From: Eledone cirrhosa
Taxonomy: Eukaryota
Assembly: GCA_964016885.1 (NCBI GenBank)
Contig: OZ024765.1
Location: 9,486,001-9,550,000 of the forward strand
Direction: 5' to 3'
DNA: 64,000 bases
A program made the position numbers and the translations under genes. The notes beneath the pieces are model-generated. The model was not told the DNA's origin. It made no database searches and saw only the letters and a program-made list of their open reading frames with translations. Below, in pieces: positions 3,921-20,109 of this stretch; the first letter of the stretch is position 1; each line of letters starts with the position of its first letter.

Positions 3921-4238
3921 TTACCAAAGATTCGATCGAGAAAACATTGGTTTTTTGGCGGTCATTCTTGGTAAGGTGAATGATGAATGCACTGGAGAGG
4001 CGACAACAAGGTTTTCGTGGCGTTCCTCTGAATTTGCAAGGCAACAATCGAAATACTTGTGTAGCTTCGCGGTTAAAAATTTCGCCGATTCGTTCAGGAA
4101 GCGCAAAAGCACCGTCAGAAAAACGGCTAACCAAAATATCATTATGACGTCATCGATTATGCTAATGAGCTTACCCAGACCGATGCAGGCAGAATGGTCG
4201 CTGTCTGGCAACAGATGGGGAGAGTAGTAATGATGACA

Positions 4239-4280
<42 letters not shown>

Positions 4281-4281
4281 C

Positions 4282-4316
<35 letters not shown>

Positions 4317-5158
4317 CTGTTGCTGGTGGTGGTGGTGGTGGTGGTGGTGGTGGTGGTAGTGATGGTTGTAGTAGGGCTGGTCGTCGTTCTCCTGGTTTAC
4401 AAGTGTAAAATCTGGCAGTGATAAAGACGAGTCGCTCTCGGGAAATAGAGGAAGGTTAGGCTTAGGTGTCATCTGCAAATTGAAGCTGCAGCTGAACGGC
4501 CTCAGTATTCGCCAGTACCGCAAGGCGGTCAACAAGAAAAACGGTAACATACAAGATACAAAATAAAACATGTCTTCTGGCAGAGATAGATGGATTTCTT
4601 TTCTTCTCTCCCAGTCCATGCTGTTACCAGCGTCGTCGTCACCATCACCAACGTCATCGTCAGCGTTGTCACCGTCATCGACGTTCTCGTCGTCGTCGTC
4701 GTCGTCGACGTCGTCGTCGTCGTCGTCGTCGTTGTTGTCATCCTCCCTGGCCATAGTTCTTTCCAGTATCTCCAGGCGTCTCGCCGCCGCGGCGGCCGCC
4801 TCTCCTTCTCCGCCGCCACCTCCTCCTCCTCCTCCGCCACCGCAACCTCCTTCTCCGCTGCCACCGCCGCCACCACCGCCGCCGCCACCACCACCACCAC
4901 CACCTCCTCCTCCTCCTCTTCCTCTTCCTCTTCCTCCTATCCTTCCTCTTCCTCTGCCTCCTCCTATCCGCTCTCTTCCTCGTCCTCTTCTTATCCTACC
5001 GCCTCTTAAGTAATATTCGCTTCCCGTCTCCGCCATCATCATCATCATCATCAGGTTTCTTTCCTCCCTGTTCGTTAATGTCGTTCCACTTCTCGTTCTT
5101 ATTCTTGTTCTCGTTCTATCGATTCTTCGATTATCACTAACAGTATTATTGCCCTCAT

Positions 5159-5200
<42 letters not shown>

Positions 5201-6230
5201 AATTACTAATACCATCGCTGGTATCGTCTGCATCGTCTCCCTCGTTCTCGTCTGCTTCGTTCTCGTCTCCCTCGTTCTCGTCTCCCTCGTTCTCGTCTCC
5301 TTCGTTCTCGTCTCCCTCGTTCTCGTCTGCTTCGTTCTCGTCTCCCTCGTTCTCGTCTCCCTCGTTCTCGTCTGCTTCGTTCTCGTCTCCCTCGTTCTCG
5401 TCTCCCTCGTTCTCGTCTGCTTCGTTCTCGTCTCCCTCGTTCTCGTCTCCCTCGTTCTCGTCTCCCTCGTTCTCGTCTCCCTCGTTCTCGTCTCCCTCGT
5501 TCTCGTCTGCTTCGTTCTCGTCTCCCTCGTTCTCGTCTGCTTCGTTCTCGTCTCCCTCGTTCTCGTCTGATTCGTTCTCGTCTGCTTCGTTCTCGTCTCC
5601 CTCGTTCTCGTCTCCTTCGTAACTGGTGTCCCTCCCGTCCACTACGTCCGCCGCCTCCTCCTCCTCCTCCTCCCCCTCCTCCACCTCCTCCCTCCATCGT
5701 CTGTACGATGCGGAAGAGGCGGCGGCGGCGGCGGCGCTGGTGACGGTGGCGGTGATGGTGATGGCGGCGGCGGCGGTGATGGCGGTAAATGTGTCGGTGT
5801 CGGTGCTGCTGTTGCTGCTGTTGCTGTTGTTGTTGTTGTTGTTGCTGTTGTTGTTGTTGTTGTTGTTGTTTTTGTTGTTTTTGTTATTAGTGTTGCCGTT
5901 GTTGTTGCTGTTGCTGGTGTCGGTGCTGCTGTTGTTGTTGCTGCTGTTGCTGTTGTTGTTGTTGTTGTTGTTGTTGCTGCTGTTGCTGTTGTTGCTGTTG
6001 CTGTTGTTGCTGTTGTTGTTGTCGGTGCTGCTGTTGCTGTTGTTGTTGTTATTGTTGCTGTTGCTGTTGTTGTTGTGGTGGTGGTCGTGGTTGTAACGGC
6101 GGCGGTGGCCGTGGTGTTCGTGGTTGGGGTCTTCATTTAGAAAGTCAAACATACCGAAGGGTTTGTAATAGTAATGGGGGCAGGGGCGGGCGAATGTCCT
6201 AGCGTTTCGCACCGGAACGGAATCGGCCAT
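3921..6230 (-). CDS. Orphan 769-aa protein with low-complexity N-terminus and two predicted TM helices (paralogue A)
   Basis: Uninterrupted 2.3-kb ORF with all internal repeats in multiples of 3. Strong start context (AACAATATGG), T-tract+CAG acceptor at 6257-6275, AATAAA at 3885-3890, two hydrophobic segments, motif shared with 19579-20109. Confidence 0.7.
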
Positions 6231-6633
6231 ATTGTTTTGTTTTATTCTATATCCTTCTGCCGAAAAAAAAAAAAAACTATTTTTTTTGTCGTTTTTGTTT
6301 TTGTTTGTTTGTTATTGTTTTTTATTGTTTGTTTGTTTGTTATTGTTTTTTATTGTTTGTTTGTTTGTTATTGTTTTTTTTTTGTGTTTTTTTTTAGAGA
6401 GAAATAATAAAAATTTAAAAAAATTAAAAAAAAACAGGAACAACAAGAAAAAGAAAAAAAAGTATATAAGGTAAGAATAGAGAGGAGGGGGGTAGAAGAA
6501 GAAGAAGAAGAAGAAGAAGAAGAAGAAGAAAGGAGAAGAAAGAAAGGAAGAAGAAGAAGAAGAAGAAGAAGAAGAAGAAGAAGAAGAAGAAGAAGAAGAA
6601 GAAGAAGAAAGTGGGCGAAGGTGGAGGAGGATA

Positions 6634-17577: not shown

Positions 17578-17608
<31 letters not shown>

Positions 17609-17629
17609 GCATACATACAAACGAGTAAA

Positions 17630-18715
17630 TTGACATCGAACTGTTGAAAGAAGACTTCAAAAATAACTAGTACCGACTTCTCTTGAAACTGAACAAAATT
17701 TGGCATCATGGTGTTATCAAGTGTCTGCTGGAAAAAGGGTTTAGCCCTAACCCTAACTCCCAAAGACATTTATGCTGACATGGCTGCTACATTAGGAAAT
17801 GACACTCCAGCTTTATCAACAGTGCAAAAGTGAGCAGCTGAATTTATGGTGGAAAGGCGAGTCTTGAAGATAACCCAAGGTCTGGACGTCCTGCAACTGC
17901 CAGCATTGAGGAAAGCATTGACCGTGTTCACCACATGGTGATGGATGACAGGTGATTGACTATAAATCAAATAGCTAATGTTATCTGCATACCTAGTTAG
18001 AGAGTTGAGAATATTCTGCACAATGAACTTGACATGATGAAAGTTTCTTCTCGGGTGGTGCCACATTTTCTGACACCTGGTTAAAACACACCTGGCTGAT
18101 CACATCACGGCAAAATCTGACATTGTTTGAGGCAGATCCAGCTGGTTTCCTTGAACGTTTCCTAACCCATGATGAGTGTTTGGTTCATTACTTTGAGTCA
18201 GAGACAAAGAGACAATCAATGCAGTGAAAACAACCCTCCTCACCTGCTCCAAAGAAAGCCAAGACGGTTTCGTCTGCACAGAAGGTGATGGCCCCAGTCT
18301 TTTGGGGATGCAAAAGGCATTATGTTTGACTATCTTCAAAAAGGCCCACCATCAATGGAGAGTAATATGCCAACTTGCTGAGGCAGTTACAAAAGGCTAT
18401 TAAGACCAAATGCCCAGTAAAACTGATGAAAGGGGTCTTATTTCATCAAGACAATGTCCAGCACTCAAGTCCTTGGTTTCAATGGCAACTGTGCGTGACT
18501 GTGGCTTTGAACTGGTTGATCACTAACCTTATTCTCCTGATTTGGCCCCATCTGACTATCATGTTTCCCATCATGAATAAACATTTGGCTGGGAACCAGT
18601 AATGATGACGTCACATCATCTGTTGACGTTTTTGACCAACAGGATGAAAGGTTCTTCATCAGAGGGATCCAGGCACTGCAATACTGATGGAAGAGGTGTG
18701 TGGACCGCAAGGAGA
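17630..18715 (+). pseudogene. Decayed mariner (Tc1/mariner DD34D-type) transposase
   Basis: Remnants PRSGRP, VPH-LT, LTHDE, FHQDN and PYSPDLAPSDY, interrupted by stops and frameshifts. Confidence 0.88.
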
Positions 18716-18947
18716 GTTATATTGGCTGTTCATGATTTTGTTGAGGACAGTGGTTTGGCAGTAATCGGTAGAGCGTCAGACACCATGCTTTGCAGCATAG
18801 AGTTACGGCCCTTTGAGGTTTGAGTTTAAATCCAGCCAAAGTTAACTTTTCCTTTCGTCCTAACGGGGGTCGGTGGAATAAAGTACCAGTAATGCACTGG
18901 GGTAATTGCTGGCCTTGCGTCAAAAAAGTAGAAACAATTATATAAAC

Positions 18948-19482
18948 CAGACATGTCAAACTGAGGGTCCCCCGAGGGCCACATGGGTCACACATGTGTT
19001 GTCTGAGGGTCACATGGGTCACATATGTGTTGTCTGAGGGTCACATGGGTCACAGGTGTTGTCTGAGGGTCAGACATGACAACTAATTGCGCACATTACA
19101 ACTAACATTTTTTTATTTTATATTACGCTGGCGCTGTAAAAACCTTTGTGTGGGCCGCAGGTGTGCTTGTAAAGGGCCGCAGGTGTGCTTGTAAAGAGCC
19201 GCAGGTGTGCTTGTAAAGGGCCGCAGGTGTGCTTGAAAAGGGCCTCAGGTGTGCTTGTAAAGGGCCACAGGTGTGCTTGTAAAGGGCCACAGGTGTGCTT
19301 GTAAAGGGCCGCAGGTGTGCTTGTAAAGGGCCACAGGTGTGCTTGTAAAGGGCCACAGGTGTGCTTGTAAAAGGCCGCAGGTGTGCTTGTAAAGGGCCGC
19401 AGGTGTGCTTGTAAAGGGCCGCAGGTGTGCTTGTAAAGGGCTGCAGGTGTGCTTGTAAAGGGCCGTATGTTTGACATGCCTG
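18948..19482. mobile_element. hAT-type MITE with expanded internal 22-bp minisatellite
   Basis: TIR CAG(A/G)CATGTCAAAC, 8-bp TSD ATATAAAC/GTATAAAC; ~14 x GGGCCGCAGGTGTGCTTGTAAA. Confidence 0.82.
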
Positions 19483-19578
19483 GTATAAACTTTACTATCA
19501 TTTTTTTTTTTTTGTTCTCATTCGATTTCATTATCCCCTTTTCCTTTTCTTTTCTTTTTTATTAGCAGAAAACCAAAA

Positions 19579-20109
19579 ATGTTTGCGCTGTCTAAAATCA
19601 AAGATGAGAAGGAAGTCCTTGGACATAAAGATATAGGAGTTAATCTCTTAGAGAGACAAACAGTCGATAAAGAAAAAGAAAAAGATAAAAAAGAAAAAGA
19701 AAAAGAAAAAGGAAAAGGAAAAGAAAAAGAAAAAGAAAAAGAAAAAGAAAAAGAAAAAGAGAAAAAAAAAATAAGGATTTTTTTGGAAGAAGTATTTCTT
19801 CGGAGACACACCTTCATAAAAAGAATTTCTTTGTACTTTAAGATATGTTTCACATTGATGCTCATCTTTTTTACATTCATACGGGTCTCCGTTATCATAC
19901 GGGGCTATGCATGCGATGTTCTCTTCAATCCGACGAATTTGTTCCACGCCATGAGGAAAGGACGATATCCACCATATCTGGTGAGGGAGGCCATAAGCTG
20001 TCTGAATCTAGCCGAGTACTCGACTGTGTTTGATGCAACCCTCGTAAGCTGTTGGGTGATCGCGTTAGGAGTGATGATCCGGGCATTTTCCAAGTGGCCA
20101 ATACGTTGA
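19579..20109 (+). CDS. Orphan 176-aa protein with KE-rich N-terminus and two predicted TM helices (paralogue B)
   Basis: Polypyrimidine tract + TAGCAG acceptor 10 nt before AAAATG, AATAAA at 20286 and 20310, two hydrophobic segments, motif shared with 3921-6230. Confidence 0.68.
   Translation: MFALSKIKDEKEVLGHKDIGVNLLERQTVDKEKEKDKKEKEKEKGKGKEKEKEKEKEKEKEKKKIRIFLEEVFLRRHTFIKRISLYFKICFTLMLIFFTFIRVSVIIRGYACDVLFNPTNLFHAMRKGRYPPYLVREAISCLNLAEYSTVFDATLVSCWVIALGVMIRAFSKWPIR

Follow-up and report, generated by a model that had tools for sequence, protein, structure and literature searches.

A divergent pair of orphan reading frames and a distant third copy in Eledone cirrhosa: a lead to a small, probably lineage-restricted membrane-protein family

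A 64,000-nucleotide stretch of the Eledone cirrhosa genome (contig OZ024765.1, positions 9,486,001 to 9,550,000 of the forward strand, designated the window) contains two open reading frames (ORFs), A and B, which look unrelated over most of their length. An initial annotation of the window proposed that they nevertheless share two short blocks built around membrane segments and cysteines, and that they belong to an undescribed membrane-protein family. The locus raises the question of whether A and B are diverged copies of one gene and, if so, what that gene encodes. Both frames were present in the ORF list and were divergent, separated by 13.3 kb, and a third candidate member, designated C, was identified on another chromosome. 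A, B and C probably constitute a small, lineage-restricted family of membrane proteins with a familiar architecture; at present the family is a lead. The frames and their parts are as follows (amino acids, aa).

3921..6230, minus strand: ORF A, 769 aa, a single coding exon with N-terminal tracts followed by the membrane module
4488..4571, minus strand: A block 1, from the first hydrophobic segment (aa 554-572, weak, hydropathy 1.50) to Cys581
4240..4372, minus strand: in-frame poly-His/poly-Gln tract inside the 100-residue Cys-to-Cys loop of A
4104..4187, minus strand: A block 2, with Cys682, Asp and the second hydrophobic segment (aa 691-709, hydropathy 2.45)
19579..20109, plus strand: ORF B, 176 aa, a single coding exon with a Lys/Glu repeat followed by the membrane module
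19669-19771, plus strand: Lys/Glu hexamer repeat within B
19843..19914, plus strand: B block 1, from the first hydrophobic segment (aa 89-107, hydropathy 2.49) to Cys112
19915..19998, plus strand: 28-residue inter-Cys loop of B, equal in length to that of C
19999..20079, plus strand: B block 2, with Cys141, Asp152 and the second hydrophobic segment (aa 149-167, hydropathy 1.96)

Block 1 ends at Cys581 of A and Cys112 of B, and block 2 starts at Cys682 and Cys141, respectively. Both motif blocks were found as claimed, including the identical C-x2-L-x7-D-x6-W spacing. Each motif, although derived from A and B themselves, matched only these two among 3,794 ORFs in the surrounding 464 kb. Across 1.264 Mb (21,853 ORFs), motif 1 occurred in one further ORF and motif 2 in three, and the two occurred together in none of them. 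When the A-B alignment was compared with shuffled sequences, the best single local alignment was weak: of 5000 shuffles each, 39 global and 91 local ones attained its score of 45 (p ~0.01-0.02). The two blocks chained together, with A split at the His/Gln tract, fared moderately well: their score of 83 was reached by none of 5000 global and three of 5000 local shuffles (0, 3 and 3 over the sets). The A-B pair alone is suggestive, and its apparent similarity lies only moderately above chance, which is no proof of kinship.

The initial annotation also proposed an old duplication followed by fast divergence, and this is supported chiefly by C, a third copy that lay outside its view. A genome search with A block 1 gave 63 candidates, of which the best non-self match was G000:C28:81530335-81530520 (E 0.0297, 36% identity). 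This match lies within C (G000:C28:81530092-81530544), a protein of 150 aa from its first ATG in a frame that is open for 165 codons and contains no simple repeats; at the local stop frequency, the chance of such a frame is ~1e-4. The contig that carries C is 136 Mb long and has a number that does not follow the order of size; C lies ~29 kb beyond the final exon located for a gene that we take to be LRRC47-like. The second half of C was absent from the query, yet it matched A block 2 at a level reached by only 16 and 4 of 5000 shuffles. B and C have the same 28-residue Cys-to-Cys spacing, and their alignment runs for 57 columns with no gap; the two Cys, Tyr-x-Pro and the Asp all coincide in it, and its score was reached by 31 and 16 of 5000 shuffles. 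A profile of A and C built from their automatic alignment ranked B first of the 21,853 local ORFs, at E 0.032, with the next ORF at 0.66. An anchored alignment of A and C gave B an E value of 7.4e-4, a result not fully independent of B, from which the register was borrowed. That C surfaced in this way shows that paralogues at E 0.03 are missed by standard genome-wide thresholds.

Base identity between A and C at codon positions 1, 2 and 3 was 52, 70 and 32 of 112, respectively; 25 of the 40 identical residues were encoded by different codons, and GC content at third codon positions was 0.60 in one and 0.24 in the other. This pattern is as expected if the protein had been kept while silent sites became saturated, although the comparison used a protein-guided alignment, which leans toward protein conservation. 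Addition of C also pared down the consensus of the initial annotation, which proved overly specific: the Trp and the first Arg are both missing from C, and neither YxPxL nor the Trp is family-wide. The YSPHL of A is possibly out of register with the YPPYL of B, on which alignments disagree. Because alignments disagree on the second-Cys region of A and on the Pro register, the core that we regard as secure from the aligned proteins is a smaller one: a hydrophobic segment with Thr, I-[RK]-[PG]-[FY]-x-C, a loop, C-x2-[LI]-x7-D, and a second hydrophobic segment.

The DNA around A and B was assessed for gene-like signals. The acceptors and donors below are read from the sequence only, and the AATAAA sites are weak against background.

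6257..6285, minus strand: poly-T tract plus AG, candidate splice acceptor 26 nt 5' of the ATG of A
19502..19568, plus strand: pyrimidine tract plus AG, candidate splice acceptor 10 nt 5' of the ATG of B
3885..3890, minus strand: AATAAA ~30 nt 3' of the stop of A
20286..20315, plus strand: two AATAAA sites 3' of B
6934..6984: outward-facing donor-like sites, minus at 6938 and plus at 6979, with a TGACGTCA palindrome at 6968 between them

A candidate acceptor and a good-context ATG, with a purine at -3, precede both frames, as had been noted before. Among the 825 ATG-initiated ORFs of at least 120 aa in the 1.264 Mb, 11 had an acceptor-like site no more than 40 nt from the ATG. Six of the 825 had a purine at -3 in addition to such a site; two of the six were A and B, and the other four were built of simple repeats. 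The downstream AATAAA signals were likewise present as reported (at 3890 for A and 20286 for B), but they are weak evidence because the background is 1.15 per kb. The periods of all ten tandem arrays in A are divisible by 3, compared to 437 of 1,675 (26%) across the 1.264 Mb, and this run of frame-keeping arrays is the longest in that region; on these grounds ORF A looks coding. B module DNA was single copy in a genome search, and B and either half of A each gave one strong match. No RNA data set was listed as containing the sequence; four of 21 low-share runs were compared with the B locus and gave no cover, which is uninformative on expression. The GTAAGT on the plus strand within 6938-6984 is the sole one in the first 20 kb of the window, and it may be speculated from the sequence that this 45-base stretch serves as a shared 5' region of A and B.

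The module is laid out alike in all three ORFs: two hydrophobic segments bracket a pair of Cys residues, these in turn bracket a loop, and an Asp stands 11 residues after the second Cys. The 19-residue Kyte-Doolittle values of these segments are 2.49 and 1.96 in B and 1.50 and 2.45 in A, and C has values of 1.31, 1.85 and 1.59. The loop between the Cys residues spans 28 aa in B, 28 in C and 100 in A, where it is largely poly-His/Gln. The N-terminal ~535 aa of A consist of Asn/Ser, acidic five-residue repeats, and Arg/Gly and Asp tracts, with the membrane module after them. Single-sequence structure models placed helices at residues 32-115 and 132-171 of B (predicted template-modelling score, pTM, 0.39) and two long helices on either side of the loop in the A module (pTM 0.38), as in the B model. 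For the two-helix hairpin of the initial annotation, the agreement between hydropathy and these two low-confidence models counts in favor, but the first segment is weak in A and C. Overall, we consider a two-pass hairpin with a disulfide somewhat better than an even prospect.

If A, B and C are diverged copies of one gene, their products would probably have both ends in the cytoplasm and the loop outside, since each of the three has basic residues after its second segment and none showed a signal peptide by eye. In B, ~5 residues separate Cys112 from its hydrophobic window and ~8 separate Cys141 from its own; because the two Cys are at a similar distance past their helices, they could pair outside the cell across antiparallel helices. 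The N-terminal tails (~20 to 550 aa) may be disordered and tolerant of repeat expansion. That the tails and the loop of A absorb long repeat expansions would mean that constraint acts on the paired helices and their outer ends.

Further members were sought in the genome. Profile searches of 600 kb on either side of the window and 100 kb on either side of C revealed no further member. A block-1 DNA pattern gave 89 matches that included A and C; 50 of the others were inspected, none of them belonging to the family, and 37 were left uninspected. A pattern based on B and C recovered B, C and two chance matches without a fourth member, and further protein-level genome searches gave no new member. 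As these searches were seed-based or motif-bound, three members is a lower bound.

The view that the module is unassignable to a known family also held, as no described family or transposon protein matched. Protein searches covered 5.8 billion clusters for A and B and 1.84 billion representatives for B; C was not among the queries, and cephalopod coverage was not confirmed by a positive control. No candidates were retained for the B region (0 of 10) or the A module (0 of 316), and full-length A gave four weak matches among 1,413 candidates, none credible; the 1.84 billion representatives contained no homologue of B. Exact sequence look-ups found none of the three proteins on record, and the Atlas held no usable match for A or B. 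No Pfam family was above cut-off for A, B or C, nothing credible was found in NCBIfam, PHROGs or PDB sequences, and metagenome and viral contigs gave no match. Fold searches with the low-confidence models returned generic helical hairpins only, with a best E of 0.97 in the viral fold search. A transposon or viral protein was rejected on the basis of that value, the single strong genome match each for B and the halves of A, and the lack of matches in viral contigs or PHROGs. Connexin/innexin, a four-pass family, was also rejected: the Connexin profile scored 16.7 and 18.1 bits against a cut-off of 31.3, in alignments spanning the Lys/Glu and His/Gln tracts. No description of an A/B/C family was found in the literature at the level of titles and abstract openings.

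Several observations weigh against a three-member family of hairpin proteins. The best of 2,857 unrelated windows scored 81, close to the chained A-B score of 83. B block 2 was not significant against C alone (677 of 5000 shuffles), C was not in the top ten of an A+B block-2 profile, and the link of B to A and C is the weakest of the three as judged from these alignments. Two dispersed-repeat ORFs, from loci chosen by earlier C-protein and motif searches, slightly outscored B with the anchored A+C profile. One automatic alignment set the second-Cys region of C on a Cys-free part of the A loop, and some alignments paired the Tyr-x-Pro of B and C with a Pro of A other than that chosen in the initial annotation. 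The protein searches contained no orthologue of A or B. With respect to topology, the hydropathy of the first segment is no more than moderate in A and C, at 1.50 and 1.31, a third hydrophobic segment (1.59) is present in C, and both models are single-sequence with pTM 0.38-0.39. Basic residues also follow the first segment, on the supposed outer side, which is not a neat fit to an outside loop.

A rival reading is that A and C are paralogues and B an unrelated orphan whose hydrophobic segments and cysteines resemble theirs by chance. The single-block A-B p value, the near-equal score of an unrelated window, the non-significant block 2 of B against C and the E of just 0.03 from the automatic A+C profile all favor it; but B had been paired with A before C was known, its register with C is gapless over the same 28-residue loop, and it ranked first with the A+C profile. 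We regard a chance likeness of B as unlikely. The frames might also not be genes at all, having stayed open through simple repeats, with the module a chance or repeat-derived pattern. The 825 ORFs of at least 120 aa in the region include many that are repeat-built, and a dispersed repeat (L167, L170, L171, L174, L176, L178, L180, L181, L190, L192, L193 and others) has a translation that mimics block 1. Its DNA showed only 21-30 nt matches to A, B and C in 12 copies, and because no convincing DNA link was obtained the likeness was treated as chance. The single-copy B module, the frame-keeping arrays, the acceptor-plus-start context and the repeat-free open frame of C argue further against it, and this is the least probable of the explanations considered. 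That A, B and C are real paralogous genes is, in our judgment, clearly the likelier case.

A relationship to a known membrane family, of which the three would be strongly diverged members (for example channel beta-subunit-like or another small two-pass family), is favored by the fact that just three sequences are available and that the large protein searches covered A and B but not C, and by a layout that resembles that of BK-channel beta subunits. It is opposed by the lack of a Pfam family above cut-off, of a convincing NCBIfam, PHROG or PDB sequence match and of similarity to the MARVEL exons of this genome, and by a 28-residue two-Cys loop that is much shorter than the beta-subunit loop; we consider it rather unlikely. 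For the favored reading as a whole, a lineage-restricted hairpin membrane-protein family of at least three members that would most likely act as accessory subunits, the balance tips modestly in favor.

The function of such proteins can be approached only by conjecture. The sequences show neither a pore loop nor a catalytic motif nor a large ectodomain, and for this reason we guess that the conserved helix pair would pack against a partner, be it a channel, a receptor or an adhesion protein, in the manner of small auxiliary subunits with two passes. This accessory role is the single likeliest function, though in itself a doubtful one. Close behind it ranks a reproductive role, at the gamete surface or elsewhere, in which the proteins would mediate recognition on their own; this would leave the family claim the same and change only the function. 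Reproductive genes typically diverge fast, have a single coding exon and undergo repeat expansion, and all three are consistent with the features described here. A CRE-like palindrome near the putative 5' end of A would fit as well, but this palindrome occurs 1.3 times per 100 kb. LINE (long interspersed nuclear element) enrichment is a mark of coleoid Z chromosomes according to PMC10925132, and C is on a large LINE-rich contig that is possibly the Z chromosome (reverse-transcriptase-like cover of 9.7% in 200 kb around C vs 3.7% around the window, in one small sample). Neither A nor B maps to the contig of C, B and C have a small outer loop, and the whole support is circumstantial; a reproductive surface role is accordingly rated as an outside prospect. 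A more elaborate proposal, and one that we would not expect to hold, is a cephalopod-restricted class of disulfide-stapled two-pass proteins with partners of their own, in which A and B would be co-transcribed outward from the 45-base stretch and cooperate, possibly on the neighboring neuropeptide receptor or at the sperm surface.

The receptor in question is encoded by a class A G-protein-coupled receptor (GPCR) gene on the minus strand (G000:C26:9452000-9486024), whose start at window position 24 is 3.9 kb beyond the stop of A, so that A and B lie upstream of its coding region. Its first coding exon runs from window position 24 to 123 bases left of the window, with at least six more exons extending to at least 34 kb left. 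The class A assignment rests on weak PDB matches (best E 0.009), and the gene is presumably CCAP/neuropeptide-S-receptor-like.

The window belongs to contig C26, which measures 23.8 Mb in an assembly of 3.0 Gb; it is rich in microsatellites and LINE-type reverse-transcriptase frames and contains a decayed mariner-like copy. Beside A, a 288-codon His/Pro repeat frame (6943-7809, plus strand) diverges from it and includes an ACC array of 243 copies; this frame is probably repeat-built. An interstitial (TAACCC)n telomere-like array follows at 7902-8259, broken by a ~30-base unit repeated about four times. A decayed transposase remnant, which we take to be mariner-like, occupies 17650-18730, 850 bases upstream of B. 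Two near-identical, inverted LINE reverse-transcriptase copies are located at 22703-25704 (minus) and 38866-40602 (plus), the former split by a 1.5 kb AT/AC microsatellite. Outside the window, at G000:C26:9661397-9669481 (minus strand), a frame of 2,695 codons continues unbroken through 8 kb of intron-free sequence; it is presumably ATR-kinase-like.

Among known systems, BK-channel beta subunits (KCNMB) and the TipE/TEH sodium-channel auxiliaries are two-pass auxiliary subunits. KCNMB (PF03185) and TipE/TEH proteins have two passes, both ends inside, a disulfide-bonded outer loop and a Cys soon after the first helix. The hydropathy and charge pattern of A, B and C would fit two passes with both ends inside, with a weak first segment in A and C. 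The outer loop of KCNMB is folded, more than 100 residues long, and holds four or more Cys and several disulfides; in contrast, B and C have a 28-residue loop with two Cys, A has a very long low-complexity tail, and none of the three has a Pfam match. KCNMB/CaKB itself was rejected, since its profile was not matched by A, B or C and the loop size fails. A PF03185 family search of this genome came back blank, as did its controls, which makes it uninformative. By analogy, the family may still act in the manner of the BK beta or TipE-type auxiliaries, though its sequence and loop set it apart from them.

Synaptophysin-type MARVEL proteins offer a likeness, in that two Cys close the short loop joining their first two helices. 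MARVEL/synaptophysin (PF01284) was rejected because four passes are needed and the modules of A and B have two segments and C three. In contrast to that likeness, there was no similarity to the multi-exon MARVEL exons of this genome: against three MARVEL-bearing ORFs, the score was reached by 195 to 1,960 of 2,000 shuffles. Exons of two multi-exon MARVEL genes were observed in this genome (L251 and L254, C1; L250 and L252, C4), which we take to be physin-like and synaptogyrin-like.

Cephalopod genomes contain many orphan families, and a further one is therefore unsurprising by itself. Those described in PMC9068888 include reflectins, suckerins, histidine-rich beak proteins and unnamed arrays. 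A, B and C would resemble them in being lineage-restricted, in lacking similarity to known proteins and in their low-complexity tracts. The families named there are clustered arrays of structural proteins, whereas A, B and C are few and scattered, with one divergent pair and one distant copy, and have membrane segments; the unnamed arrays could bear on novelty. The three members define a small conserved core of two Cys, an Asp and a helix pair that is searchable in other cephalopods. Beside the structural families named in PMC9068888, a membrane family confined to one lineage could contribute a novel regulator of channels, receptors or gametes.

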